DNA of 56,149 bases from Minisyncoccia bacterium (GTDB taxonomy: Bacteria > Patescibacteriota > Minisyncoccia > UBA6257 > 2-01-FULL-56-20), in the NCBI GenBank assembly GCA_050008535.1, contig JBEKML010000002.1, forward strand, positions 90,732-146,880. The letters run 5' to 3'. The position numbers and the translations under genes were made by a program. Positions 12,158-27,271 of this stretch are shown here, one piece after another; the first letter of the stretch is position 1; every line of letters starts with the position of its first letter. Under the pieces are notes generated by a model. That model saw only the letters and a program-made list of their open reading frames with translations. It was not told the DNA's origin and did no database searches.

Positions 12158-13004
12158 ATTTCCGGATAGCCCGGACGACGCCGGCTTCTTTTCCTTTGAA
12201 GCTGTGCCGCGCCTTCGGGACGATCGTTATTGAATGATGGCGCGACCGGACGTTTTCCTTGAACCATGCAGCGATCTCTTTGATGCTCCGATCGCGGTAT
12301 TCATCGTTTCCGGCGAACATGGTGAGCAGGGGAACGATTATTTTTTGAAGCGCGCGCGGCGCTTTTCCGGGTTGCGCATAGGGAAAAATTTCCTCTTTGC
12401 TCTCCGGCGTGTATAGACTAAGGAATCGCTGCGCGTCAATGAGCTCCGGCCAGATATTTTTGGGCAGGAGGTCGTGCGGTTTCTTTTGTGTGACCAGTTT
12501 CCGCGCCGTCGCCTGCGCCCGCTTCAATTTTTTTGCGGGAGTAAATTTCTTTATGCCCGCATAGTCGCTTATCGGACAGAGGAGCGCCGCACCGCTGATC
12601 TTTCTTTGTTTGTTCTTTTGGCTTAAATAATAAGCGATCTTCTGGCAGCCCGTGGAGTGCCCGACCAGATAGATTTTTTTTGCTTTGGCTTTGCGAAGCA
12701 GGTTCACGGCCCCTTGAATATCATCAACGCATTCCGTGAATATCTCGTGGGCCTTGCCGCCCGGTTTCCGCCGGCGCCCCCTTCGTATTCCCGCTACCGT
12801 ATCGTGGCCGCGATTGTTGAAAAAAAGAACGGCCGTGTCTTTCCCCGCGAGCGGCGTGAGGAAATTGTGGTGGGCGAACACATTTGAACCAAGGCCATGA
12901 ACGAAAACAATACCTCGTTTGGGGCGTCTGCCGCCGAACCACAGCCCGTGAAACACGTATTTTTTGGGCGTGATGATCACGACGGGCAGGCAGCCTTTCT
13001 CCAT
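12135..13004 (-). CDS. alpha/beta hydrolase (DUF1749-like)
   Basis: FVHGLGS oxyanion loop, GHSTGCQ nucleophile elbow, D and H candidates (GNDEY, ARHSF). Confidence 0.85.
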   Translation of the reverse strand: MEKGCLPVVIITPKKYVFHGLWFGGRRPKRGIVFVHGLGSNVFAHHNFLTPLAGKDTAVLFFNNRGHDTVAGIRRGRRRKPGGKAHEIFTECVDDIQGAVNLLRKAKAKKIYLVGHSTGCQKIAYYLSQKNKQRKISGAALLCPISDYAGIKKFTPAKKLKRAQATARKLVTQKKPHDLLPKNIWPELIDAQRFLSLYTPESKEEIFPYAQPGKAPRALQKIIVPLLTMFAGNDEYRDRSIKEIAAWFKENVRSRHHSITIVPKARHSFKGKEAGVVRAIRKFIARAPR

Positions 13005-13008
13005 CTCG

Positions 13009-14310
13009 CTAATTGTGCGTGGCCGGCGTAGGGGCGGGCGCTGACATCGGTACAGGGAGCGGCGGTGGCAATGGCGGATAAACGACATTCTTTGCGTTTA
13101 TGATGCTCGTAACCTGCGACAAAACATTTTTCAGACGATCGAGGAGGCCGGTCAGTTGCAATACGGCGCCGACCTGGATCGGGCTTTGTACGGTGATGGT
13201 TTGGCCGTTCTGGGTTTGGATGATGAACGAGCCGTCGGTATTCACCTGCGTCACGGTACCGGTATACGTTGATGGGGTGGCAGGGATAGAGAGATCGCGG
13301 ACAATGTCGGCGGTCAAAGTCTGGCCGTTGTCGGTGGTTTCGCCATAGACGTTCAACACGTCGCCGACATTCAGGTTTGAAAGCGAAAGCTGCGTCCGGT
13401 TGGCATCAAGCAGGATCGTCTGCGCATCAACCGTAACGACGTATTTGCGGAGCGCGATCCAGCTTGGCATCATCGCGGCGGGCGGGGTTACGTCTTTCGT
13501 CGCCGCGTTGCCCGAAAAAGACGAAACTCCCATCGGGCACGCATAGGGCTGTTTTATAGAATTCGTATCAAACAAGTAGCACGGTGCGGCTTGTTGCTGG
13601 GTCACAGCGATCGTCGCGGGGATGCTTGTCCCGGATATTGAAACGATTTCCACGTTGTTAAGCTGGAGCGTTTGTGTCTGCACCGGTTTTGAAAGGTCGC
13701 GGACAAGATAGGCCTGGATGCTGCCATCGGCGTTGTAATAACCGAAAACGTTGATCTGATCTCCAGCGGCGAAATCGTTCAATGTGGCGCTCGTCCGGTC
13801 GCGGAGCGAGAGCTGCGTTGAGGCATCAACTTCAATGCGATAAGGCTGATAGCGGAAAGGAGGATATATGGACGGCTCCGGCTTTGTTGTCCCGCCCGTG
13901 CCCGCATTTACGCCCTGAGTTGTTGCGGTGCTCGTAGTAGTGGTGGGCGGTACAGGACATGTGACCGCAGTGCCGCTTGCGGCGCTTTGCGAGTTAAAGC
14001 GATAACATTTTACGGTTGATTGGGTCGTGGGCGTTGCGGCAGCGGAGCCGACGCTCGTGCCCCCGCTCACGGCAGGACTATTGTAGATCACGGGGAAGAT
14101 GCTTTGATCCGTGGCGAGAATTTCCGCAGGTGGGTTGGATGCCGAAACACTTTGCACCGTCAGATTATTAAATTGAATGAAACCGTTCGCCGGCTGGACC
14201 GGCATCGCCGTTTGGGCGTTCACATTCAGCGCGGCGCCGAAGGAACCCATAACAACGCCTACGACCAAAACCGCCACCGCGCCCCCCGCAAAAATAAATG
14301 TTTTCTTCAT
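13009..14310 (-). CDS. secreted/surface protein with duplicated DUF5666-like beta modules
   Basis: Signal-like MKKTFIFAGGAVAVLVVG; two similar modules ending in VRDLS; T/P-rich linkers. Confidence 0.8.
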   Translation of the reverse strand: MKKTFIFAGGAVAVLVVGVVMGSFGAALNVNAQTAMPVQPANGFIQFNNLTVQSVSASNPPAEILATDQSIFPVIYNSPAVSGGTSVGSAAATPTTQSTVKCYRFNSQSAASGTAVTCPVPPTTTTSTATTQGVNAGTGGTTKPEPSIYPPFRYQPYRIEVDASTQLSLRDRTSATLNDFAAGDQINVFGYYNADGSIQAYLVRDLSKPVQTQTLQLNNVEIVSISGTSIPATIAVTQQQAAPCYLFDTNSIKQPYACPMGVSSFSGNAATKDVTPPAAMMPSWIALRKYVVTVDAQTILLDANRTQLSLSNLNVGDVLNVYGETTDNGQTLTADIVRDLSIPATPSTYTGTVTQVNTDGSFIIQTQNGQTITVQSPIQVGAVLQLTGLLDRLKNVLSQVTSIINAKNVVYPPLPPPLPVPMSAPAPTPATHN

Positions 14311-14354
14311 ATTCATATTATATACCGTTTGATAGGCGATTACGTTACACACAA

Positions 14355-14383
14355 TTGACTGGTTTTTATCAATAGGGTACATT
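14355..14383 (+). promoter_or_regulatory. sigma70-like promoter
   Basis: TTGACT-N17-TACATT. Confidence 0.5.
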
Positions 14384-14433
14384 AGAAAAAGCAGGCTGTA
14401 CCACGCTAGCTAAGAAGGGAGTTTTGAGGGGAT

Positions 14434-14915
14434 ATGAAGACCTGTCCCTTTCGTCCATGGCAGCACGGCGCGCGCGTCATTGCTGCTACTTTCCTGATGT
14501 GTATGGCGGCGCCTTACGTCGTCAGAAAGGAGGTTGGCCTTCCGAGACGGATGCATCCACTGAGGATAATGAACTTACCGCGGCGCTACTGTTCGCGGCG
14601 AGGTTCGCAGTGGCGGGGCACTCGGCATTGGCGGCGATGCATTGCGGGGTGATGAGCAGTATGGATTGGAGAACAGATCCCGCAATTGCGCAGCAGGCAG
14701 CTTCTATCACTCGCGCGTGGCGTGTCAGCCCTTGTGCCGACACCGCGCCGCACACACCCCCAACTTCACAAATTCATCCTCCCAAAAGGGCTCCGCGGCT
14801 CATGGCGGGGCCAACTACGGCAGTAGCGCCGAAGCCGCTCGACAGGCACCAGGAGAAATCTGGAGGGCCGTTGCGCCCACCAGCGTTTTTCACTCTTCGC
14901 CTCGGCAGAGCATGA
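14434..14915 (+). pseudogene. possible frameshifted or ambiguous hypothetical gene
   Basis: SD GAGGGG + ATG 14434 opens a 72-aa ORF with a hydrophobic N-terminus; the overlapping -1 frame runs to 14915, just before the terminator repeat. Confidence 0.3.
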
Positions 14916-14940
14916 GCTTTCCTTCTCCAGCCTCATTATC

Positions 14941-14993
14941 ATCAGAGGTGGGCCACTTCCGCCGTCGTGCGCGCGGAGGTGGCCCTTTTTCTT
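14941..14993 (+). repeat. 53-bp direct repeat, copy 1 (terminator-like hairpin)
   Basis: ATCAGAGGTGGGCCACTTCCGCCGTCGTGCGCGCGGAGGTGGCCCTTTTTCTT, identical to 16723-16775. Confidence 0.95.
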
Positions 14994-15098
14994 GGGAAGG
15001 CCAATTGACCTCGCCATCCTTCTTGCCATAGTATGGGGATGTCCTTTGTCAACAGATTTACGTAAATCCCTGATTGAAGATTGGAGAGAGGTAGGCAT

Positions 15099-16706
15099 AT
15101 GGGGACTAAAACGGCGCTACTTTCCGTTTACAACAAAACGGGGATAGCGGAGTTCGCGCAAGCGCTGATTTCCCGGGGTTGGAATATTCTCGCCTCCGGG
15201 GGAACGGCGCGGGTGCTTCGATTAGGAGGCGTCGCGGTGCGCGACGTTGGCGACATCGTGGGGAAGCCGATTCTTGGCCACCGCGTTGTCTCGCTCTCAC
15301 GGGAAGTCCATGCAGCGCTTCTTTCGCGGCCCACATCGGACGACGAGGCGGAACTCGCTCGGTTGGGACTTCCTCGCATTGACCTCGTGTGTGTCGATCT
15401 TTACCCGTTGAACGCCGCCATTACAGACCCTCAGGCGACGCGTTCCTCGGTCATCGAGATGACGGATGTCGGCGGACCGACGATGCTGCACTCGGCTGCC
15501 AAGGGAGAGCGCATCGTCATCTGCGATCCGGCAGATCGGCAGGCGGTTATCGATTGGCTCGACGCCGGCTGCCCCGACCAAGAGAGTTTCATTGACCAAC
15601 TGGATGCCAAAGCGGACGCCATTGTGGCGGCCTACTGTCTCATCTCAAGCTGGTTTCGCAGCGGGGGCTACTTCGACGGACTCGTCGGCGCGCTCGGTAC
15701 CGAATGCAGATACGGCGAGAACGCCTGGCAAGGCCCGGCGGGCCTCTTTCGGAAACTTGGGGAAAATGACCCGCTCGCACTCCACAAATTCCGCGTCGTT
15801 GCAGGAAGCGCGCCAAGCTACAACAACTTCTGCGACCTCGACCGGATGCTTCAGACGGTGACGCACATAACCGCGGCTTTCGAGACCAACGCCGGCTTGC
15901 TCCCAAAGATCGCCGTCGCGGTGAAGCACGGCAATTGTTGCGGCGCATCTTTCGAGTCGGCGGATCTTCTGCAGGTTGTCGAGGCGATGGTCTCCGGAGA
16001 TACCCGCGCCATCTTCGGCGGTCTTGTCATGACGACGTTTCCCGTCGATCTGGCGATCGCCGAAGCGCTCGTCAACGCGCACACCTCAGGTACGAAACGG
16101 CTTCTGGACGGGGTCGTCGCTCCCTCCTTTGAGCAGGAGGCCATTGAAGTCCTCGCTCGCAAAGCAGGAAAGTGCCGCCTCATCGAAAATCGGGCGCTTG
16201 GCATGCTTACTGCGGCAAGCTTGAACGGCGAGACGAGGCTCCGGCAGGTTCGCGGAGGGTTTCTGAGGCAACCCAATTACACCTACGTGATCAATCTGAG
16301 CGACCCTCAGGTCAAGCACGTCGGTACGGTGACAACGCGTCAGAAATTGGACCTCCTTCTGGCGTGGGCCATCGGCTCGACCAGCAACAGCAATACGGTG
16401 ACGCTCGTCAAGCAATGGCAGCTCATCGGCAACGGTGTTGGCCAGCAGGATCGGGTCGGGTGCTGCGAACTCGCCATCAAGCGCGCGAGGGACGCGGGCC
16501 ACGATACCGAAGGGGCAGTCGCCTACAGCGACAGCTTCTTCCCTTTCCCCGATGGCCCGGAGGCGCTCGCCAATGCGGGCGTGAAGGCCATTCTGACCTC
16601 AAGCGGTTCCGTGAAGGACGCCGCGGTCGAGGCGGTATGCTCGGCCCATGGCGTTTCTCTGATCATGGTCCCGGATGCTCTGGGGCGGGGATTCTACGGC
16701 CACTAG
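15099..16706 (+). CDS. purH: bifunctional AICAR transformylase/IMP cyclohydrolase
   Basis: ALLSVYNKTG, ASGGTA, DVGGPTM, RYGEN, SYNN..D, KHGN.CG, GVGQQDRV and SDSFFPF motifs; SD GAGGT. Confidence 0.95.
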   Translation: MGTKTALLSVYNKTGIAEFAQALISRGWNILASGGTARVLRLGGVAVRDVGDIVGKPILGHRVVSLSREVHAALLSRPTSDDEAELARLGLPRIDLVCVDLYPLNAAITDPQATRSSVIEMTDVGGPTMLHSAAKGERIVICDPADRQAVIDWLDAGCPDQESFIDQLDAKADAIVAAYCLISSWFRSGGYFDGLVGALGTECRYGENAWQGPAGLFRKLGENDPLALHKFRVVAGSAPSYNNFCDLDRMLQTVTHITAAFETNAGLLPKIAVAVKHGNCCGASFESADLLQVVEAMVSGDTRAIFGGLVMTTFPVDLAIAEALVNAHTSGTKRLLDGVVAPSFEQEAIEVLARKAGKCRLIENRALGMLTAASLNGETRLRQVRGGFLRQPNYTYVINLSDPQVKHVGTVTTRQKLDLLLAWAIGSTSNSNTVTLVKQWQLIGNGVGQQDRVGCCELAIKRARDAGHDTEGAVAYSDSFFPFPDGPEALANAGVKAILTSSGSVKDAAVEAVCSAHGVSLIMVPDALGRGFYGH

Positions 16707-16722
16707 CAGTCGAAAGCCACTT

Positions 16723-16775
16723 ATCAGAGGTGGGCCACTTCCGCCGTCGTGCGCGCGGAGGTGGCCCTTTTTCTT
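16723..16775 (+). repeat. 53-bp direct repeat, copy 2 (purH terminator)
   Basis: Identical to 14941-14993; GC stem followed by a long T run. Confidence 0.95.
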
Positions 16776-16877
16776 TTTTTTATAATACTTTTTTCTTGCG
16801 ATGCACTCTGTCCCGCTTTTGAGTAAATAAAGGAAAGGGGCGGCCTGCACGCTGGTTGGTGCGAAGCCGCCCCGAAA

Positions 16878-19757
16878 CTATTGCCGTGGCCTTGTCGGCC
16901 TTGGCACTGGAACCGGCTCGCGGCCGAATCTTCGCGAGACCGGAGTAAAGAGCGTTTCCGACGTTTGAGCGGATCTGACCTGCTCATCCGTCAGGAATAT
17001 GGGATGGTACATGTTCTTGAGCCAGCGCTCGAACATATTCCCATATCCTGCTGTGCCGGGCACTGAACTTTGCCCCCACACCGTGATGGAGGAGGCCCGA
17101 ATGCCGTTCGGCGGGAGCGAGGCGATGAGCCGGCTTACGGCTCCGCCCGAGAAATTGAACGCGTTGGCATCCTGACCGTCCAACGGATGTCCCGCAACAT
17201 CCGGTGTGCCATAGCCTCCGCCGCGTGAAATGCCGGAGAGTCCAGGCGACAGATTCGCGAAGCCGCCTGCTGGAGGGACGTTGAAATCTCCGTTCAGGGG
17301 GCTGTAGATGATCAGCCGGTGCAGTTTACCCCAGCGGTAATCATCCAAGTTCTCTGAGCCATTGAACGCCGGGGCGAAGGCCGGACCCTTCAAGAGATCC
17401 AGCGCTTTCCGGAGGCACCGGAGAATGACGGTATCCCGGTCCGCTTGGAAGAAGTTGACGCCGGAGGCGCCGCGGCCCTTCATGGTCGGAGAGTTGTCGA
17501 GAAGAATCCGCAGCAGCGAGAGTTGCTGGTCGGCGGGCGGGCAGTAGTTGCCGAGCCCCATCTGCTGGAAAGGGGTCTGAATTACATCAATGACAAACTG
17601 CCCTCTCCAAACTGCGTACAGGGTCGCCGCAACGCTGCTCGCGACTTCTTCCCGTGATGGGTCGTTGGGGCTGTCTGGTCCGCGACCCAATGTGTATCCT
17701 TCGCGGATACCTGGCGGGCTCGAGAAGTCCCAGTGTGCGAGACGGTCGATAGCTTCCGCCATCCGTCGGTCATTGGCGAGCGCCTTGAGCTCGGCCGCCG
17801 TATCGGGTTTCTGCGCATTCGCGAATGCGGCGACGAGATAGGGGACAAACACCTTCGCGTCGTGCGAGACGGTGCTTGCCTGAATTACTGGCAAGTCGGC
17901 GAAGGTGATCTTGTGGCCGTTGGCCGCGAGACCCCGAATCATCTCCGTGATGGTGGCGATCCGCAATCCTCGCTCGAAACTTTCCGCGAGGAGGTAGATA
18001 CCTCCACCGGGCCGCATGTGCCCGAGGGGATCATTCCCAACGCTCACTCCCACCGGGTCGTTGTTCCCGGCGACGAGGAATCCTTGTTCGGGATTGATCG
18101 AAAAGGGCATTTCGGCCCTCGGAATGATCTCGAACGGGACGACTTGGCCGGGCTGCGGATTTCGGAGCTCTTGCCATTCGTTCCGGTCGCTCGTCCCATC
18201 TTGGATGAAAGACGGGGACATTCCCATGGTAGGTTTGCCGGTGGATTGGTCGAAAGCTTGGAGGCGTTTCCGCAGCGGGACCTCGCCCGTTACGAAGCAG
18301 GCGATGTTCCCGTCCACGTCCGCGTAGCCCCAGTTGGTGCCACCGACGGAGTGGTACTGGAGGGCTTTCCGGAAATCGTCCAGACCTCGCGCGCAGGCAA
18401 ACCCTTTGTAGGCTTGGAATTCCTGCGTTGCGTACAGCCCCGTCCATTGGGTGCTGAAAGCAATGCCGGTATTCGGGTCAATCTTGATCAGCGGCCCATG
18501 CCGCCGAACGATGTAGGTGACCCCGCCGCTGAAGCGGTCCACTTCCATCGGAACGATGTCGTCGACGCCGTCTCCCCGGTTGATGAAGAACTTTTGGGGG
18601 ATTACGTCGAGAGGCTCAACTCGTCCTTCAAAGATAGTTCCTGTCGGTGTGCCTGAGGATCCATCACTGATTTTTTCCTGGCGGATGTCCGTTACGGACA
18701 ATGGCGTCATCTGCAAATTCCAGCAGATGCGCTCATTGCACCCGCAGATGATCGCGGGGACGCCGGCGAGCGTCATGCCCGCAGCGTTCATTGGTTGACC
18801 AGGGTCGCTCACGATGAGATGCGTTTCGAACAATTCCCACAATGGGCCGAAGTCCAAATGCGGGTCGTTGCCAATCATGGGGTGGCCGGTATCGGTCAGC
18901 TCGCCGCTGATCAAAAACCAGTTGCTCCCGTGAAGAGCGGCGCCCGGTTGCCGTGCCAAGATCGGCAGGCTGTTCGGCGAATTCTCGCGATACTGCCGCG
19001 CAATCCTGAATGTTTCAGGATTGACCTGCTGTGTTGTCGCGGCAGTCGTTGCGGTTGTTGCGGGGTAATTGAGAAGCCAGTCGGGGATCGTGAAGACCGG
19101 CTCGAACGGCGCGAACCGCCGAGCGTCTTCGAAAAACAACTTCGTCCCGTCGAACCCGTGGGTCATGCCGGCAGCTTGATGTGCCGCAAGGGCGATAGAG
19201 TTGTCGATCGCCCCTTCCCCATAGGACAGCATGAAGCTGAAGAACTTCAATACGGCGACGCTGTCCAATGCCGTCCAGCGGGGGATGCTGGCCCGGGTCA
19301 ATTTCAGTGCGGCGAACTCCGGCGGCAACTCTGTGGTTAGATTATCCAGCCACGCGTTGACTCCCGAGGCATACGCCTCGAGTTCGGCACGGATTTCCGC
19401 CGGATAGGTGTCCAGCGACAGTTGCGCGGCGCGGCGCAGGCCGATCGTACGCAACCACGGATCGAGCCGGGGGGAATCGTAATGCTCCCCAAGCAGTTCG
19501 GCTGACGTCCCGCTTGCGAGACGCCTGCGCCAGTCCATGGCGAAGAGGCAGCACTGGGCATGAAGATATCCCAGGGCCGCCGCCGCATCAGCCGCATTTT
19601 GGGCGTGGATGTGCGGGACACGATCTTCGTCCCACGCTACCCGAACCCCAGAATGCAGTATGTTGAGCCGGATCACTTCCAGCTCGCCGGTGCCTGTCGC
19701 CGTATGCATTCCAAGCAACAGCAACAAGATTACGACCGTTTTTCTGGTATCCATCAT
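16878..19757 (-). CDS. penicillin acylase / AHL-acylase family Ntn-hydrolase, secreted
   Basis: Signal peptide; VPHIHA..ALGYLHAQ; beta-subunit start GSNW..SG..T.TG.PM..NDPHL; NWGYADVDGNI; WGKLH; SD GGGAGG. Confidence 0.92.
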   Translation of the reverse strand: MMDTRKTVVILLLLLGMHTATGTGELEVIRLNILHSGVRVAWDEDRVPHIHAQNAADAAAALGYLHAQCCLFAMDWRRRLASGTSAELLGEHYDSPRLDPWLRTIGLRRAAQLSLDTYPAEIRAELEAYASGVNAWLDNLTTELPPEFAALKLTRASIPRWTALDSVAVLKFFSFMLSYGEGAIDNSIALAAHQAAGMTHGFDGTKLFFEDARRFAPFEPVFTIPDWLLNYPATTATTAATTQQVNPETFRIARQYRENSPNSLPILARQPGAALHGSNWFLISGELTDTGHPMIGNDPHLDFGPLWELFETHLIVSDPGQPMNAAGMTLAGVPAIICGCNERICWNLQMTPLSVTDIRQEKISDGSSGTPTGTIFEGRVEPLDVIPQKFFINRGDGVDDIVPMEVDRFSGGVTYIVRRHGPLIKIDPNTGIAFSTQWTGLYATQEFQAYKGFACARGLDDFRKALQYHSVGGTNWGYADVDGNIACFVTGEVPLRKRLQAFDQSTGKPTMGMSPSFIQDGTSDRNEWQELRNPQPGQVVPFEIIPRAEMPFSINPEQGFLVAGNNDPVGVSVGNDPLGHMRPGGGIYLLAESFERGLRIATITEMIRGLAANGHKITFADLPVIQASTVSHDAKVFVPYLVAAFANAQKPDTAAELKALANDRRMAEAIDRLAHWDFSSPPGIREGYTLGRGPDSPNDPSREEVASSVAATLYAVWRGQFVIDVIQTPFQQMGLGNYCPPADQQLSLLRILLDNSPTMKGRGASGVNFFQADRDTVILRCLRKALDLLKGPAFAPAFNGSENLDDYRWGKLHRLIIYSPLNGDFNVPPAGGFANLSPGLSGISRGGGYGTPDVAGHPLDGQDANAFNFSGGAVSRLIASLPPNGIRASSITVWGQSSVPGTAGYGNMFERWLKNMYHPIFLTDEQVRSAQTSETLFTPVSRRFGREPVPVPRPTRPRQ

Positions 19758-19961
19758 ACTCTCAGCCTCCCTTTCCCATTCCTAACATTCCGTTAAAACG
19801 AGTTAACGAGCTGATGTGATGCTACATAATTCACGGTTTTTTGTCTATGCGATACGTTCTACCCGTGGCCGAGTTGTCCATCGGCGCGGGGCGAATACAA
19901 TCAACACAATCTTGAGTTTAAGATCGAATTGTCGTGAGCGGGACTGGTCAGCAATAAGGAC

Positions 19962-19990
19962 TTGACGAATAATGAATATTGAATTATAAT
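19962..19990 (+). promoter_or_regulatory. near-consensus sigma70 promoter of the five-gene operon
   Basis: TTGACG-N17-TATAAT. Confidence 0.8.
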
Positions 19991-20087
19991 CTTGGGCGAA
20001 TATAGGTAGGACTGAAACTGCCTGTATAGATCTTTTTCAACTGAATATCAGCTAACAGAAAAGGTTTACAGAAAGGAAGGGACGAAG

Positions 20088-20804
20088 ATGTCTGTACTTG
20101 GTAGGGCGGTCGAAGCGCTTACCCTTGGCCTCGTTCACGAAGTGAGCGATACCGAGGAACGGCCTCCGATCGTCGCCGAAGAAGGTGCCCATGCCGGAGT
20201 TGCGCAAGCCGCTCTGACAAGTCCGCGGCCCATTGCAGCCGCAAGTGCAGCGCCAGTGGCCGCGGGTGAAATTGCAGCCGCGGTGGCAAAGCGCGCAAGC
20301 AAAGATCTGGAAGCAGTACTCGCCGCCACGCCCGAGAGGTTTCAGCAGTTTCTGGTCAAGAAGAACGAACTCGCTGAAGTGCTTCGGGAGGGCGGCGCGG
20401 ATCCGGCCAAGATCGAGAGCGTTGCTACCACGAAGGCGATCAAGGCATTGAAGCTGACCATCGCCGACGTGACTGATGCGGCAGGTGCCGCAAAGCAGGC
20501 GCTTGAGGGAATCAGGGCGGAGTTCGCGGCTACCGTCCAGGGGACGGAACAGGAACGGGTCACGCAACCAACCGCGGGAATCGCGGAGACGGAGGCGAGG
20601 ATCGGAAGCATTCGCGAAACTATCGCGGGGCTACAAGAACAGATCACCCAACTGCAGTCCGGCATTGCGCCGGCACGCGCAGCGATTGCGACCGCGCAAG
20701 CGAACCTCGAAAAGGGCAAGGCCATTTTTGAGGGTTCCTGCGGTCGCGTTCAGGCAAGCCTACAAGCCATGGAAACCGCGATTCTCGCGGCCATGCAGAG
20801 ATGA
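20088..20804 (+). CDS. Ala-rich coiled-coil hypothetical protein
   Basis: Purine-rich SD; heptad-like C-terminal half; ATGA overlap with the next gene. Confidence 0.8.
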   Translation: MSVLGRAVEALTLGLVHEVSDTEERPPIVAEEGAHAGVAQAALTSPRPIAAASAAPVAAGEIAAAVAKRASKDLEAVLAATPERFQQFLVKKNELAEVLREGGADPAKIESVATTKAIKALKLTIADVTDAAGAAKQALEGIRAEFAATVQGTEQERVTQPTAGIAETEARIGSIRETIAGLQEQITQLQSGIAPARAAIATAQANLEKGKAIFEGSCGRVQASLQAMETAILAAMQR

Positions 20805-22069
20805 AGGGAGACCTCACAATGGGAAGCGGATTGATGCCGGGCGGCGGCGAACAGCAGCCGCTCGTGACACACACTACCACACCGAGGCCCACCGGGTCCC
20901 TTCTGGACCGGGTGGCCGACGAAACGAATCGCCGGTTGGAGTATTTGAAGGGACACGAGGCCTCGGTGGGCCACCTCTTCAAGCTGCTCCTTTTCGGCGG
21001 CGGCGGGCTCTGGTTCATGTTCAACTGGCAGCTCGTGCGCGACTTCGTGAGCGGGATCGTGGATATCCAGACCAAAGCCATATACGGGGGCATCCTCGCC
21101 TTCGTCATGTGGATCATGTGGTCGGTCTTCTCGAGCAAGAAGTTCCAGTACACCGTCGCGATGATGGTGGACCGAACAATCGAGAGGTTCCACCGCATGG
21201 TCGTTGCCCGCGATCCGGAAGGATCGGCGCGCTTCGCCATCAGGCGACTGCGCAAGCGGCTCCGTGAGGGAGAAGAAGCGAAAGCGAAGGTGGGCGGCGC
21301 CTACGAAGCCATCCACAGCGAGGCCGAAAGGGCACATGAGGCGGCAGTCGATGCGATCGCCCGGGCGAAAGGCCTTTATCAGGAACAACTGAATCGGAAG
21401 CAGGGCCGCGGCAATCCGCGAATCAGGCTGAACGATCAACAGTTGGATATGGCGCTTTCAAAGGCAAAGGCCGACGGGCGGCGCGAGTATGCGTTCTGGC
21501 AAGAAGAGACCGCCAACGCCCGGACCCTCGAGGCACGATACCAAGCGATCCAAGAAGTTCTGGATTCGGCGAACATGGAGCTCGGGAACATGGAAGCGGA
21601 TCTCGAGAAAGCCGTTGCGCGCTGGAACCTGAGTCTTCAGCAAATGCAGGCATTGGAGGCGTCCGACGACCTGGTCAGTTCCCAGGAGCGGAGCGTCTTC
21701 GACCAGTCCATGCAGATCATTGCGCGGCAGGCCGACACGTTTACCGGCAGAACGCGGATGATCCTTGAACGGCTGGACCCGACGGTGCAGACCTATCGTG
21801 CAAGTCAGGCGGGAGCAACGATCGCAGATGAGGAATTCTTCGCGGCCGTTGCGGACGATCCTGCTTTCGGCTTGAAGCCAGCGACGCAACTGAAGCTGGT
21901 CGCGGCTCCCGAGAGGCCGGTCATCGACGACATGGAACAGTTCCTCGGCGCGACTGCGCCGCAGGGGCCCATTCCCATCCGGACCATTACCCGACCTGCT
22001 GCCAGCGGCGGGGCTCCCAAGCCCGGCAGCAGCAGCAGCGGCGATTTCAAAGATCTCTTGGGGGGTTGA
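20801..22069 (+). CDS. 2-TM membrane protein with a long helical/coiled-coil domain (possibly PspA/IM30-like)
   Basis: Two hydrophobic segments near the N-terminus, then ~250 aa of charged helical sequence and a P/G/S-rich tail; PspA likeness is inference. Confidence 0.75.
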   Translation: MKGDLTMGSGLMPGGGEQQPLVTHTTTPRPTGSLLDRVADETNRRLEYLKGHEASVGHLFKLLLFGGGGLWFMFNWQLVRDFVSGIVDIQTKAIYGGILAFVMWIMWSVFSSKKFQYTVAMMVDRTIERFHRMVVARDPEGSARFAIRRLRKRLREGEEAKAKVGGAYEAIHSEAERAHEAAVDAIARAKGLYQEQLNRKQGRGNPRIRLNDQQLDMALSKAKADGRREYAFWQEETANARTLEARYQAIQEVLDSANMELGNMEADLEKAVARWNLSLQQMQALEASDDLVSSQERSVFDQSMQIIARQADTFTGRTRMILERLDPTVQTYRASQAGATIADEEFFAAVADDPAFGLKPATQLKLVAAPERPVIDDMEQFLGATAPQGPIPIRTITRPAASGGAPKPGSSSSGDFKDLLGG

Positions 22070-22129
22070 CGCTAACGAGTCTGCCTTCCTAAACAGAAAC
22101 CGACAAACCGAGAAGAGAGAGGAAATCCT

Positions 22130-23992
22130 ATGAGTTTCGAGATCCAGAGGTCCAAGGGTGGGTTCAGGAAACGGCTCATCCCGTTGCTTTTCATCGTGGC
22201 CGTCGTGGTCGCGATTCTGTACCTCCCTGCGAAGAAAATCCTTCCGTCACTCGTGCCCTCCGGCGTAAAGACCGTGGACGTGGATGTCGCGACGAACGCG
22301 GCGAAGAACGTGAAGGTGGAACTCCCCAAAGGGCGCCCCGTGGCGCTCAGCGACGAGAAGGTGGTTCGTCTGCTTGTCATGCAATGGGGCGCGCAGAGCT
22401 CGCTGTTCCTCGCGAACGGCGGGCCGGTGACGACGATCGATTCCAAGGTCGCCAAGCGCGGCGCTCAGCTGCGCATCGTCAACGAAAACGATACCGACCA
22501 GATGAAGGATCAGCTCATCGCCGGGGTCACGGAGTGGGCCAGGAACGGCGGCTCCGGGAATCCGACGAACGGCGCTCACGGCGTCATCTTCATGGGCGAC
22601 GGCATCCCCGGCTATCTGCCGGGTTGGAACGAAGCGCTCCGGAAGGTGTGCCGCGCGTACAAGCTCCCCGAGGAGCAGTGCGAAGTGCGCGTTATCGGCG
22701 CGGTCGGTTCTTCATACGGCGAGGACAAGCACATGGTCCCTGTCGAATGGAAGAACGACCCACGGCAGGCACTCGCGAGCGTCTCGGGTAGATACGAGCT
22801 GACCGCTGCGTATTTCTGGGACGGGGATCACGTCCTCGGCCTCGACTGGGCGGCTGCCAATGGGCTCCCGGTCAACCCGAGCGACAAGACTTTCGACCCC
22901 GATGCCGTCAACTTCATGAACCCGAAGGATTATCTCGATGCCGTCGACAAGTATCTCGCCGGCTATTGCGAGACGCGGGAATTGGTTTCGCACGGCAAAG
23001 CGTCGGGCAGAAAGGTGCAGGCGTGCGTCGCAGCGGTGGACACATGGACACCGGGCGATTGGAACGTCGCGCACTCGGCGAAAGACACCCTGGTGACGGC
23101 GCTCTCTACCAGAGAGAATCGCAACCAGATGGCTTCGACGCTCGTCGTTCCGAACGGTTGGGCCAGGCAGCACGCGGAAAGCATCGCTGCGATCCTGGCG
23201 GCCAATTCGGAAGCCGCCGATATGATCAAAGTGAGTGACCTCGCGCTCCACCGAGCCGCGGTCATCGCGACCCAGATCTACGGCGGCAAAGCGAATCTTA
23301 CGGCGGACGAGTGGGCGGCCCTCTTCAAGGGCGTTCCTCACCGCACGAAGAACGGCTACCAGATTACGCTCGGCGGAAGCAGGGTGTGGAATCTGGCCGA
23401 CAACCTGGATTACTACGGCTTGAGCGGCGAGACCAACATCTACGACGCGGTGTATACGAACATCGGCCAGATGATCTCGAAGCTCGCGCCGAACGTGATT
23501 CCGAAGCTGCGGCCGCTTTCCGAGGTATTCGACCCATCCTACCTTCTCCATGCGAAGGCCATGCTGGGGGAGGGCGGACTGGGCGTCGCGGAAGTTCCGC
23601 ATTATACGGGAGGAGCGATCTCGGACGTCGTCGCTTCTCGGCCGTACACGATCAACTTCGACCCAGGGTCCGACCGGATCCAGGCGGGTTCGATGGAGAC
23701 CATCCATGAGTTGTACCAGCAAGTTGCGAAGAGCGACCTGAAGGTAAGCATTGTGGGGCACACCGATAACACGGGCGGCCCCAACTTCAACAACCAGGCG
23801 CTTTCCGAGCGGAGGGCTGCCGCCGTAAAGACGGCGATCATCGCCGCTTCGCACGGCAGCAAGTTCCTGCCGGAGACCCGGTTCTCCACCGAGGGACGCG
23901 GGGCAAGCGAGCCCGTGAATCCCGAAGCGAATCAGAACTCGGCCACCGAACGCGCGCTCAACCGGCGCGTCGTGATCACCCTCGGCCGGTGA
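22130..23992 (+). CDS. membrane-anchored solute-binding-type protein fused to a C-terminal OmpA-like peptidoglycan-binding domain
   Basis: N-terminal TM; IVGHTDNTG..NQALSERRA.AV..GRG...P...NRRV OmpA motifs; SBP call for the central domain rests on its alpha/beta pattern and the ABC context. Confidence 0.82.
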   Translation: MSFEIQRSKGGFRKRLIPLLFIVAVVVAILYLPAKKILPSLVPSGVKTVDVDVATNAAKNVKVELPKGRPVALSDEKVVRLLVMQWGAQSSLFLANGGPVTTIDSKVAKRGAQLRIVNENDTDQMKDQLIAGVTEWARNGGSGNPTNGAHGVIFMGDGIPGYLPGWNEALRKVCRAYKLPEEQCEVRVIGAVGSSYGEDKHMVPVEWKNDPRQALASVSGRYELTAAYFWDGDHVLGLDWAAANGLPVNPSDKTFDPDAVNFMNPKDYLDAVDKYLAGYCETRELVSHGKASGRKVQACVAAVDTWTPGDWNVAHSAKDTLVTALSTRENRNQMASTLVVPNGWARQHAESIAAILAANSEAADMIKVSDLALHRAAVIATQIYGGKANLTADEWAALFKGVPHRTKNGYQITLGGSRVWNLADNLDYYGLSGETNIYDAVYTNIGQMISKLAPNVIPKLRPLSEVFDPSYLLHAKAMLGEGGLGVAEVPHYTGGAISDVVASRPYTINFDPGSDRIQAGSMETIHELYQQVAKSDLKVSIVGHTDNTGGPNFNNQALSERRAAAVKTAIIAASHGSKFLPETRFSTEGRGASEPVNPEANQNSATERALNRRVVITLGR

Positions 23993-24072
23993 GTTTCTCT
24001 GTTAGCTGGTTCAGTAGGGCAGTATTTAGCTCTTTGACCAGTTACGCGGCAGCACAGTACGTGCTCCGCACT

Positions 24073-24114
24073 GCCCGACCACCAACGGTCTCCGTTGGTC
24101 GGTCGGGCGCTTTT
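24073..24114 (+). terminator. intercistronic hairpin / possible partial terminator
   Basis: GCCCGACCACCAACGG-tct-CCGTTGGT(c)GGTCGGGC followed by gcTTTT. Confidence 0.55.
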
Positions 24115-24213
24115 CTGAGTTCCGTTCTTTTTGTTTGAGAAAGGAACTCAGAAGAGTAGTTCTGCAGTTTTTTTGTCAATTCAATATTCGGATACAGAAG
24201 GAGAAGAAGTCCT

Positions 24214-25068
24214 ATGCCTGGAGAAACCGCGACCGCGCAAGCGGAATCGCAACCAAACGGACGGGTTACGCGGAAGAAGAGCTCCGCTGTCCTGGCGTTC
24301 ACCCCCAACGCGGCAATGCCTTCACAGGCAATGATCGCAATGACGTGGATCCAGATCGCAGCGGCAGTATCTTTCTGGTTCCTGTCACCAAGCGCGATTC
24401 TGCCGGGTCCGGTGGAACTCGCGAAGGCGCTCCAAAAACTCTGGTTCGAGGACGCGCTCGGCCGGGAGATCCTGACGTCGCTCATCCTCAACGTTGAGGC
24501 AATGGCGATCGCGGCAGTGATCTCTCTCTTGCTCGCGTATTCAAGCACGATGCCGTTCTTTAGGCCACTCGTGCGCTTCATCGCCAATTTCCGATTCTTG
24601 GGCTTGGCCGGCCTCTCGCTCATCTTCACGGTGTACACGAGCGGCAGCCACTCGCTCAAGGTCAGCATCCTGGTGTTCTCGGTGAGCGTGTACTACCTCA
24701 CATCGCTCGTGCGGATCATCATGGCGATCCCTGAATCGGAGAAGGATTATTTCCGCACGCTCGGCATGAGCGAATGGCAGGTGGTCTACGCCACCGTCAT
24801 CCGCGGACGTGCCGCAGAGATGTGGGAAGCCTTGCGGCAGAACTCGGCTATGGCATGGATGATGCTGACGACCGTTGAAGGGCTTTCAAAGTCCGAAGGC
24901 GGCGTCGGAGTTCTCATGCTCCTTAGCCAGCGGCTGCGGCGGCTCGACGAAGTTTATGCCGTGCAGCTCACGCTGTGGTGCCTGGGCCTTACGCAGGATT
25001 ATCTCTTTGCGCGTGGCCGGCTGGCGCTCTTCCCGTGGGCCGACAAGCGCACGAGAGGAGGCAAGTGA
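24214..25068 (+). CDS. ABC transporter permease (TauC/SsuC-like)
   Basis: ILPGP early motif, about 6 TM, EAA-like SEKDYFRTLGMS, E..S..GGVG; SD AAGGAG. Confidence 0.85.
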   Translation: MPGETATAQAESQPNGRVTRKKSSAVLAFTPNAAMPSQAMIAMTWIQIAAAVSFWFLSPSAILPGPVELAKALQKLWFEDALGREILTSLILNVEAMAIAAVISLLLAYSSTMPFFRPLVRFIANFRFLGLAGLSLIFTVYTSGSHSLKVSILVFSVSVYYLTSLVRIIMAIPESEKDYFRTLGMSEWQVVYATVIRGRAAEMWEALRQNSAMAWMMLTTVEGLSKSEGGVGVLMLLSQRLRRLDEVYAVQLTLWCLGLTQDYLFARGRLALFPWADKRTRGGK

Positions 25069-25898
25069 TGGAATACACAGTCACCAGCAAAAAGCTGTTG
25101 TCCGTCCAGAACCTGAGCCTTATCCTGGGCGACAGGGTGATCCTCCGCGCCGTGGATACGGAGATCTTTGAAACCACCCAGCCCGGCGGCCCTGTCCATG
25201 GGCAGGTTGTTGCGTTTCTCGCTCCGTCAGGCATGGGCAAAACCCAGCTCTTCCGTTGCATCGCTGGCCTCCAGGAACCGACGAGCGGCGCGGTGTACGT
25301 GAACGAGGATAAGGATCCCGTTCGGGCGGGCGAGGTCGGCGTTCTGGCCCAGGACTATCCGCTGGACGAAACGCGGACGGTGCTTGGGAACTTGGAGCTC
25401 GCCGCGCGGCTTGCGGGCCGCAAGGGCAGTGACGCCACGAATGCGGCCAAGGAAAAACTGGCTCGGTTCGGTCTCTGGGACGTGCGCAAGCACTATCCCT
25501 GCCAGTTGTCCGGCGGCCAGCGCCAGCGAGTGGCCTATCTCCAGCAGATCCTGTGTTCCAAGCATTTTCTGCTGATGGATGAGCCGTTCTCAGGGCTGGA
25601 CGTACTCGTAAAGGACCAGGTTGCGCAACAGATCCTTGAGTACGCGGCGCAAGACGTGGTGAACACCATCATCATCACGTCGCACGACATCCGCACGGCT
25701 TGTGCCGTCGCGGACCTCGTGTGGCTCCTCGGCCGCGATCACGGCGAGGACGGAAAGCCCATCCCGGGAGCAAGGATCCAGAAGGCCTACAACCTGAAGG
25801 ATCTGGACCTGTGCTGGCATCCGGGAATCACTTCGACCCCTCGCTTCTTCGAGTTCGTAACGATGATCGAGCGGGAGGACTTTCCGAAGCTTTCGTAG
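25068..25898 (+). CDS. ABC transporter ATP-binding protein (TauB/SsuB-like)
   Basis: APSGMGKT, LSGGQRQR, LLMDEPFSGLD, TSHD; TGATG overlap with the permease; SD AGGAGG. Confidence 0.92.
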   Translation: MEYTVTSKKLLSVQNLSLILGDRVILRAVDTEIFETTQPGGPVHGQVVAFLAPSGMGKTQLFRCIAGLQEPTSGAVYVNEDKDPVRAGEVGVLAQDYPLDETRTVLGNLELAARLAGRKGSDATNAAKEKLARFGLWDVRKHYPCQLSGGQRQRVAYLQQILCSKHFLLMDEPFSGLDVLVKDQVAQQILEYAAQDVVNTIIITSHDIRTACAVADLVWLLGRDHGEDGKPIPGARIQKAYNLKDLDLCWHPGITSTPRFFEFVTMIEREDFPKLS

Positions 25899-25922
25899 AT
25901 CGGTATTCAGTATCAAGATTAA

Positions 25923-25955
25923 GGGCGTTGCCACACCGGTGGCAACGCCCGCTTT
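25923..25955 (+). terminator. operon terminator
   Basis: GGGCGTTGCCAC-accg-GTGGCAACGCCC perfect 12-bp stem, T-rich tail. Confidence 0.7.
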
Positions 25956-25973
25956 ATTATCTATAAAATAGAA

Positions 25974-25998
25974 TGCAGCCCGAGGGGATCGGGCTGCA
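25974..25998 (-). terminator. terminator for the small minus-strand gene
   Basis: TGCAGCCCGA-gggga-TCGGGCTGCA; T-rich downstream on the minus strand. Confidence 0.55.
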
Positions 25999-26018
25999 GG
26001 GGGGGCTACTTGCTCCAA

Positions 26019-26165
26019 CTAGGCGAGTCTCGCTCGCCGCCGGATCATCAGTGCAAGCATGACGAACAGGACGAGCGATATCGGCCATGGCAGCTTGCAC
26101 AGCAGGCTGACCACAAAGGCCAGGGACGCCCAAACAATGTTCTTGGTGAAGTATCTTGCGAACAT
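26019..26165 (-). CDS. 48-aa small membrane protein (not in the ORF track)
   Basis: MFARYFTKNIVWASLAFVVSLLCKLPWPISLVLFVMLALMIRRRARLA; GGAGG SD; own promoter and terminator. Confidence 0.65.
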   Translation of the reverse strand: MFARYFTKNIVWASLAFVVSLLCKLPWPISLVLFVMLALMIRRRARLA

Positions 26166-26186
26166 ACGCGCCTCCACGCTGTTTTA

Positions 26187-26215
26187 ATAATACCCTATAA
26201 TTATTAACTTGTCAA
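26187..26215 (-). promoter_or_regulatory. sigma70 promoter of the 48-aa gene
   Basis: TTGACA-N17-TATTAT on the minus strand. Confidence 0.7.
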
Positions 26216-26254
26216 TTTGAGGGTTGCGAAAAAGGGACATAGAATAGGGAAGTC

Positions 26255-27271
26255 ATGAAATTAGAAGTCGGCATCGTAGGGCTTCCGAACGTGGGGAAGT
26301 CCACCCTTTTTAAAGCGCTTACCAAGCAGGAGATTACGATCGCGAACTACCCGTTCGCGACAATCGATCCGAACGTGGGCATTGTTTCGGTCCCCGACGA
26401 GCGGCTGGAGAAATTGAACGCGCTTTCAAAATCAAAAAAGAAAATTCCTGCGGTCGTAGAGTTTTATGATATTGCGGGATTGGTGAAAGGCGCCTACAAG
26501 GGCGAGGGACTCGGCAATCAATTCCTTGCGCACATTCGTGAGACGCAGGCGATCGTCGTCGTCCTGCGCGTGTTTGAAAATCCGGAGATCATCCATGTTG
26601 AAAATTCCGTAGATCCGCTGCGCGACTTGGAGATTATCAATAGCGAACTCATTTTCAAGGATCTAGAATCGGTGGAAAAGCGCCTCGCGAAAGCCGAAGC
26701 CGAGGTACGGAGCGGCAGAAAGGAGGCGGTACAAGACAAAGAACTGCTTGCGCGGCTTAAAAAATATTTGGAGGACGGCACGTTGCCAATCGGCGATACG
26801 GCACTCGTGCACGATCTCTATGCGAACAGCCATATGAACGACCTCAATCTTTTAACGCTCAAGCGACAGATATATCTTTTGAACGGAACCGAAGCTGAAG
26901 TGCCGCCGCCGCTCGTTCTAAAAATAAAATCGCTCGGCGCCGATTATCTCGTGAGCGACCTTGCGAAAGCGGAAGCCGTACCCGACCTTATCAAGAAAGC
27001 GTACGAAGTGCTTGATCTTGCAAGTTTCTTTACGACCGGCGAGGACGAGACGCGTGCCTGGACGATCACGCGGGGGACGAAGGCGCCGCAGGCGGCGGGC
27101 GTCATCCACACCGACTTCGAAGAGAAATTTATCCGGTTGGAAGTGGTGGGCTATGAAAAATTAATGGAAGCCGGCGGCTGGAATCAGGCCAAGCAAAAAG
27201 GATGGATACGGATCGAGGGAAAAGAATACGAAGTGAAGGACGGCGACGTGCTTGTGGTGCGGCACGGGTGA
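26255..27271 (+). CDS. ychF: redox-regulated ATPase YchF
   Basis: GIVGLPNVGKSTLF, ANYPFATIDPN, DIAGLVKGA, AAGVIHTDF, EGKEYEVKDGD. Confidence 0.97.
   Translation: MKLEVGIVGLPNVGKSTLFKALTKQEITIANYPFATIDPNVGIVSVPDERLEKLNALSKSKKKIPAVVEFYDIAGLVKGAYKGEGLGNQFLAHIRETQAIVVVLRVFENPEIIHVENSVDPLRDLEIINSELIFKDLESVEKRLAKAEAEVRSGRKEAVQDKELLARLKKYLEDGTLPIGDTALVHDLYANSHMNDLNLLTLKRQIYLLNGTEAEVPPPLVLKIKSLGADYLVSDLAKAEAVPDLIKKAYEVLDLASFFTTGEDETRAWTITRGTKAPQAAGVIHTDFEEKFIRLEVVGYEKLMEAGGWNQAKQKGWIRIEGKEYEVKDGDVLVVRHG

Follow-up and report, generated by a model that had tools for sequence, protein, structure and literature searches.

A probable envelope cassette, shared by a Minisyncoccia bacterium and huge phages, that combines a wall-tethered importer with a PspA-like protein

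This study concerns five genes found in a 56,149-nt stretch of DNA from a Minisyncoccia bacterium (Patescibacteriota; assembly GCA_050008535.1, contig JBEKML010000002.1, positions 90,732 to 146,880), the whole of which is hereafter called the window and provides all coordinates given below. The genome amounts to 828 kb in 3 contigs, those of the sampled relatives ranging from 0.5 to 1.3 Mb. The five genes, named O1 to O5 in 5'->3' order, all lie on the + strand (20088-25898, from a list of open reading frames, ORFs, with their translations) and encode a soluble helical protein (O1), a helical protein with two transmembrane helices (O2), a fusion of a predicted binding protein with an OmpA domain (O3), and the permease (O4) and ATPase (O5) of an ATP-binding cassette (ABC) transporter (Table 1). 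In our view, they are probably one copy of a conserved and horizontally mobile envelope cassette, in which a wall-tethered importer is joined to a PspA-like protein.

Table 1. Features of the cassette locus, in window coordinates (aa: amino acids; HMM: Hidden Markov Model)
Feature	Position	Strand	Basis
Island absent from congeners, ~12 kb	14400..26250		tblastx against the congeneric genomes G002 and G003; GC content
Sigma-70-like promoter, TTGACG-N17-TATAAT	19962..19990	+	11/12 positions matched
O1, 238 aa	20088..20804	+	ORF list, family HMM
O2, 422 aa	20801..22069	+	ORF list, family HMM, hhalign, Foldseek
O3, 620 aa	22130..23992	+	Pfam, AlphaFold2 model, Foldseek
O3-O4 spacer, 221 nt, highly structured	23993..24213	+	Folding energy compared with shuffles
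O4, 284 aa, ABC permease	24214..25068	+	Family profile against PDB
O5, 276 aa, ABC ATPase	25068..25898	+	Pfam, ribosome-binding site, alignment with locus L001
Terminator-like hairpin, legible on either strand	25923..25950	+	12 pairs, 9 of them G-C

An earlier note on this DNA, made from the sequence without database searches, had described one transcription unit of five genes with a near-consensus promoter, a terminator at 25923 and a first gene coupled to the second through ATGA. The genes, the promoter-like site, the hairpin and the overlap are indeed present in the sequence, and the five genes may form a single transcript. Promoter-like sites are more frequent in the region 19000-27000 than in its shuffled versions (9 vs. 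2.1 +/- 1.4). Besides the ATGA shared by O1 and O2, the stop codon of O4 overlaps the start of O5 in a TGATG. For the ATPase, the ORF list gives a GTG start (24975), the alternative being an ATG (25068); the latter is likelier, because it is preceded by GAGGAGG, because it forms the overlap with the O4 stop and because the alignment with the homologue from L001 (a cellular contig discussed below) begins there. The spacer between O3 and O4 folds at -102.2 kcal/mol, compared with -61.3 +/- 4.5 for shuffled sequences (z -9.17; 0/200 shuffles as good), and contains terminator-like hairpins; it is possibly an attenuator or an element stabilizing the mRNA. A search of positions 19700-26300 against Rfam (E<=1) returned zero matches, and thus no riboswitch or other RNA family hinting at a ligand.

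In O3, OmpA is the sole family recognized by Pfam (PF00691, E 3.3e-15, 56.7 bits for a cut-off of 27.2, residues 510-605), while the models for solute-binding proteins give no match. The AlphaFold2 model, computed from an alignment of 31 homologues (predicted local distance difference test, pLDDT, 87.2; predicted template-modelling score, pTM, 0.75), comprises an N-terminal helix (residues 16-30) interpretable as a transmembrane anchor, a two-lobe alpha/beta domain (~75-485) and an OmpA fold. When compared with the PDB using Foldseek, this model matches NrtA (2g29, E 4.5e-9), CmpA (2i48), TauA (6ssy, template-modelling score by target 0.74-0.75) and SsuA (3ksj, 0.70), as well as ThiY-type proteins and many OmpA-like domains. 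Judging from the predicted structure, the centre of O3 thus folds like the class II binding proteins of the NrtA/CmpA/TauA/SsuA (NMT1-like) group, in agreement with the fusion of a solute-binding protein with OmpA that had been proposed from the sequence.

Across the 31 O3 sequences, the OmpA core is invariant at G543, T545, D546, N554, L558, S559, R562, A563 and N611-V614, i.e., at residues whose role is to bind the peptide stem of peptidoglycan. The same C-terminal OmpA-like domain, with its T-D...G and N..LS..RA core, is shared with the wall-anchored inner-membrane proteins MotB, TssL/TagL, YfiB, Pal and ZorB, but there the anchor is joined to a stator plug or a lipoprotein, whereas in O3 it is joined to a solute-binding domain. 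O3 is the sole OmpA-domain protein of the genome. The idea, expressed in the earlier note, that this domain could grip the peptidoglycan of a host at contact sites finds no support. The genome encodes four Mur ligases of its own, and the domain is conserved throughout the family, phage copies included. Regarding the ligand, the binding domain has eight invariant Asp/Glu and several invariant Trp/Tyr, but not a single invariant Lys, Arg or His in the 31 sequences, so that there is no evident anion site comparable to those of these two families of importers (NrtA and TauA). Proposing a cation, or a ligand assisted by a metal as in CmpA, would be no more than a guess.

The permease O4 taken alone scores below the Pfam cut-off for BPD_transp_1 (18.4 bits for 26.4), but a profile of its family (28 homologues) retrieves only two proteins from the PDB at E<=0.01, namely CmpB (E 2.1e-12, positions 18-252 of 261) and NrtB (3.3e-8). 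By homology, O4 is therefore a type I ABC importer permease of the NitT/TauT family, which, as regards the permease, supports the TauBC-like assignment made beforehand. The ATPase O5 belongs to PF00005 (E 3.7e-21), displays Walker A, signature and Walker B motifs (GMGKT, LSGGQ and LLMDEP) in its translation and bears a conserved C-terminal extension; its best NCBIfam models, i.e., PhnT2 and the sulfate and taurine ATPases, all remain far below their cut-offs. Consequently, O3, O4 and O5 have the parts of a NitT/TauT-type importer, with a binding protein predicted to be fixed to the membrane as well as to the wall. NrtABCD/CmpABCD and TauABC/SsuABC have in common with the cassette the binding-protein fold, the permease homology and the tethering of the binding protein to the membrane, but in those systems the tether is a lipid, whereas in O3 it consists of a transmembrane helix and an OmpA domain. 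Moreover, the cassette lacks an NrtC-type regulatory domain and contains helical partner genes that are additional to the gene sets of those transporters.

O2 is organized into two N-terminal transmembrane helices, a long helical domain and a disordered tail ending in a short C-terminal motif. When a profile of its family (39 members) is compared with the PDB, it finds Vipp1 chains (E 0.0052), and the alignment begins at the single invariant motif of the family, Asp-Pro, which faces the 'DPEK' opening helix 1 of Vipp1. Using hhalign against five PF04012-positive PspA proteins from genomes of the same phylum, the O2 family aligns over 192 columns with a probability of 95.5% (E 1.4e-8) and with the DP motifs in register. 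The AlphaFold2 model of O2 (pLDDT 71) has helices at residues 139-200, 212-292, 295-325 and 327-351, and Vipp1 accounts for 4 of the 5 best Foldseek matches, including the first (best E 1.3e-3; template-modelling scores by query 0.19-0.30). O2 is consequently taken as a distant, transmembrane-anchored homologue of PspA/Vipp1, within the ESCRT-III superfamily and below the threshold of Pfam membership, since PF04012 detects 0/39 family members at E<=0.01.

PspA is a protein of the membrane-repair type, and both PspA and Vipp1 feature an N-terminal amphipathic helix that binds membranes. Such a helix is not found in O2, where the two hydrophobic transmembrane helices occupy its place. O2 resembles PspA, Vipp1 (IM30) and LiaH by the 'DP' start of helix 1 and by its profile likeness, and perhaps also, going by the predicted structure, by its fold, with a long hairpin followed by shorter helices, but differs from them by its transmembrane pair, by its scores under the PF04012 threshold and by its location in a cassette devoid of PspB/C/F or LiaI partners. 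The end of the O2 tail matches a pattern (aromatic-x-acidic/polar-hydrophobic-hydrophobic) in 36/53 distinct proteins vs. 3% of internal 12-mers, this pattern having been set after inspection of the sequences. The family is large, with 1,775 clusters (50% identity) at E<=1e-3 among 1.84 billion representative proteins. As a side observation, canonical PspA (PF04012) is rare in the phylum (5/401 sampled genomes), and three of these five genes (L091, L094 and L095) have next to them, downstream and in the same orientation, an ORF of 259-288 aa with a hydrophobic N-terminal part.

O1 is soluble, with a short hydrophobic/acidic N-terminus, a Pro-rich linker and a helical C-terminal domain; among 46 distinct proteins of its family, the acidic patch is found in 35 and the Pro-rich linker in 40. 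The earlier note had suggested that both helical proteins may be PspA/ESCRT-III-like, which holds for O2 (hhalign, Vipp1 profile and Foldseek) but not for O1, the family of which shows no likeness to PspA (hhalign 18.8%). O1 and O2 as paralogues could be ruled out (hhalign 34% over 18 columns), and the DivIVA, HBL and chemoreceptor entries that appeared as candidate relatives of O1 in the Atlas comparison were below threshold. A complex prediction for O1 with residues 105-355 of O2, a fragment without the C-terminal tail, gave no answer (score 0.00). PHROG scans returned no match for either family (0/34 for O1 and 0/39 for O2). From its sequence and position, O1 is a constant, translationally coupled partner of O2, without any recognizable family.

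The five-gene set is not specific to the window. O3 has at least 199 relatives in a collection of 5.8 billion proteins, and searching IMG/VR with an alignment of O3 gave 105 encoding stretches; 80 of these were retained as loci. Their contigs reach 200 kb or more in 24 cases and 100 kb or more in 40 cases. Among five large records, three have both direct terminal repeats and a CheckV completeness of 100, one has a match to Terminase_6N and none (0/5) encodes ribosomal protein S2. Downstream of O3, tblastn recovers O4 in 77/80 loci and O5 in 74/80, always in the same order, and the loci lacking a match to O4 or O5 end within ~2 kb of O3. Upstream of O3, two proteins recur in the viral loci: one of ~220 aa without transmembrane helices and one of ~340 aa with two of them. 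HMMs built from these positional homologues, with the window copies excluded, recover the O1 (E 2.8e-17) and the O2 (E 5.8e-20) of the window, the other window proteins having E-values of 0.04 or worse. In total, 53/82 sources carry all five labels, i.e., 51/80 viral loci, L001 and the window, the labelling having relied on a crude gene call by longest ORF. Several of the misses are artefacts due to antisense ORFs or correspond to truncated loci. Since no other family occurs in more than 19 loci, the core of the cassette consists of five genes. In some phage copies (L032-L040, L046 and others), up to three small additional genes separate O3 from O4 or O4 from O5, one example being an insert family of ~157 aa present in 13 loci.

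Outside IMG/VR, the only match in GenBank phages, the unannotated sequence LR756500.1 (uncultured phage, 462 kb), has all five genes in order. The same holds for L001, a cellular locus flanked by priA and mreB, which is the single locus among the matches listed for a scan of genome contigs with the O3 protein alone as query. The O4 and O5 of L001 are 50-52% identical to those of the window, whereas its O1 and O2 cannot be aligned to them by BLASTP; more generally, identity of O1 and O2 homologues to the window copies goes down to 8-21% while gene order persists. One copy comes from a cultured organism, Aquimarina (WP_025664189.1), and the plasmid collection returned only an unrelated OmpA-domain match. 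The similar clusters that the earlier note mentioned for other bacteria and some large phages do therefore exist, and the helical genes do co-occur with the transporter genes. In a FastTree phylogeny of O3 (189 rows, the midpoint root serving only for display), the window and 12 close relatives form a clade (support 100) nested in a 49-row set that includes 30 IMG/VR rows (support 95), and viral and other metagenomic rows are mixed together, the direction of transfer not being apparent from the tree.

In the window, the cassette is part of an island that also contains a 163-aa ORF, purH, a gene of the penicillin-amidase family and a small convergent ORF. Based on tblastx, the interval between the homologue of the gene at 13009-14382 and ychF (26255-) measures 2.1 kb in G002 and 0.66 kb in G003 but 11.9 kb here, and the island has a GC content of 0.58-0.62 vs. 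~0.52-0.55 for its flanks. O3 was not found in 5 genomes of the same genus or in 24 of the same family; among 401 sampled genomes of the phylum, the family alignment has a full-length match only in the window's own, while in four others it matches the OmpA part alone. The island is not an assembly artefact, because contigs from four other peat/wetland runs leave none of the 30 bins uncovered and span both of its junctions. A prophage was also rejected, no phage-type gene being found among the Pfam matches, and there are no direct repeats at the expected spacing at the island ends.

Several other features of this region deserve mention. The penicillin-amidase-family protein (959 aa, 16878-19757, - strand, PF01804, E 7e-123) has an N-terminal signal-like segment, and its gene was not found in five relatives. 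A perfect direct repeat of 53 nt (14941-14993 and 16723-16775) brackets purH (15081-16706); each copy is a G+C-rich hairpin with a run of Ts after it, similar to a terminator, and it looks as if purH had been inserted or duplicated along with a terminator. The convergent ORF (P0276, 48 aa, hydrophobic, 26019-26165, - strand) is absent from the ORF list and has a GGAGG site, a promoter-like site matching 11/12 positions (26215-26187) and its own terminator-like hairpin (25998-25974). Finally, the contigs from the four other runs show 0-8 differing letters each over 12500-23058, and 36-77 per ~2 kb over 23072-26505, a stretch that runs from the last part of O3 through O4 and O5 into the beginning of ychF. 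The higher divergence may stem from recombination among strains or from relaxed selection.

Regarding published systems, Ravi et al. (2024, mSystems 9:e00847-23, PMC11237479) describe operons with PspA, transmembrane-bearing Snf7 homologues and an AAA+ ATPase, the longer of which add an ABC ATPase, a permease and a solute-/peptidoglycan-binding protein of PBPB+OmpA architecture (e.g., OGG56892.1). These authors offer the same reading, with OmpA attached to the wall and a PBP domain that supplies the linked transporter, and suggest that membrane remodelling is linked to solute transport. Both their operon type and the cassette include a transmembrane-anchored protein of the PspA superfamily, an ABC ATPase, a permease and a binding protein-OmpA fusion, but O1, the second helical protein here, is not detectably PspA or Snf7. 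Yuan and Chen (2026, bioRxiv 10.64898/2026.10.24.761521) count 189 pspA genes in huge phages and place 15 of them beside complete ABC transporters (binding protein, ATPase and permease); the portion of their text considered here makes no mention of an OmpA fusion, of an O1-type partner or of cellular copies. As for an already characterized transporter, which the earlier note had named as a possible refutation, the operon type is thus known from comparative genomics, albeit without a known substrate, and the cassette of the window is a further member of it.

According to the reading that we consider probable, O3 would capture a small solute beside the wall and pass it to an O4(2)O5(2) transporter, while O2 would assemble into a PspA-like scaffold at that same patch of membrane, on its cytoplasmic side, and O1 would probably control or recruit O2. 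Uptake and membrane maintenance would then act jointly, in a cassette that has huge phages as its main carriers and a patchy distribution in bacteria, and that this genome gained as part of the ~12-kb island. A series of observations weigh against this reading. The evidence for a physical or functional coupling of O1 and O2 to the transporter, which we infer, consists of gene order alone; likewise, the imported solute is an inferred element. No model of Pfam, NCBIfam or PADLOC names O1 or O2 (O2, like O4, having no PADLOC match at all), and PF04012 matches neither of them at E<=0.1, nor any other protein of the genome. The PspA alignment to which O2 was compared has only five rows, and long helical proteins can inflate profile scores, while the fold evidence from the predicted O2 structure is weak (pLDDT 71, E 1.3e-3 at best and low template-modelling scores). 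For O1, no fold relatives are detectable, its neighbours in the PDB and the Atlas being generic coiled coils or unnamed clusters. In addition, the structured O3-O4 spacer could divide the cassette into separate transcripts. Finally, the operons of Ravi et al. carry an AAA+ ATPase, whereas the cassette and the adjoining genes have none: there is no AAA+ among the window neighbours (penicillin-amidase-family gene, purH and ychF), the whole genome not having been searched with an AAA+ model.

At face value, these data might suggest a plain nutrient importer, in which O1 and O2 would be co-transcribed neighbours with a separate job in membrane stress and no functional tie to the transporter, especially as all transporter parts are ordinary for the NitT/TauT family. 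Yet, the order of the five genes is kept in the 51 viral loci, in LR756500.1 and in L001 despite the low identity of O1 and O2, and such a synteny across so diverged phages and bacteria is hard to explain without joint selection, which makes this simpler view rather unlikely. The absence of an AAA+ ATPase might instead point to a sensor or actuator, i.e., a wall-pinned binding protein and an ABC module that would not serve uptake, but report a cue from the wall or the periplasm, or else power the O2 polymer. ATP use by the ABC module would then replace the Vps4-like AAA+ of related operons in the assembly or turnover of that polymer, consistent with the AAA+ ATPase seen in the operons of Ravi et al. 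and with the lack of both an AAA+ and a sixth conserved gene in the cassette, and possibly also with the conserved C-terminal extension of O5 and the O2 tail motif, bearing in mind the post hoc definition of the latter. However, the alignment of O4 with true importer permeases extends over almost the whole protein, and the binding domain of O3, in which many residues are invariant, is predicted to keep a fold of two closed lobes, so that this possibility likewise appears rather improbable to us. The many huge-phage carriers, the patchy distribution in bacteria and the location on a variable island are also what one would expect from a phage-host conflict module acting at the envelope (superinfection exclusion or defence). 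Nevertheless, PADLOC-DB 2.0 has no system-specific match, only domain-level ones that reflect generic OmpA/MotB and ABC ATPase likeness (ZorB for the OmpA part, E 8.9e-7, and mad3/mad8 for the ABC ATPase), no nuclease, protease or other effector-type gene is present, and importer parts are unusual for such systems; we consider a conflict module to be very unlikely.

A bolder extension of the sensor or actuator view, distinctly improbable in our opinion, would make the cassette a self-contained ESCRT-III machine without Vps4, in which the ABC ATPase, gated by the wall-pinned ligand sensor, would drive or switch the O2 polymer, with O1 binding the C-terminal motif of O2 in the way MIT-domain proteins bind ESCRT-III tails. 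In huge phages it would serve to preserve the membrane of the host while long infections last, and a few bacteria, this one with its small genome included, would have captured it.

To return to the importer joined to a PspA-like protein, the cassette ranks with the more widespread sets of envelope genes in huge phages, and the copy described here adds an example from a small-genome lineage (0.5-2 Mb among those sampled), where it is rare. Finding out what it would import and why an importer is tied to a PspA-like protein would add a new use of bacterial ESCRT-III-type proteins and explain a common accessory function of huge phages.

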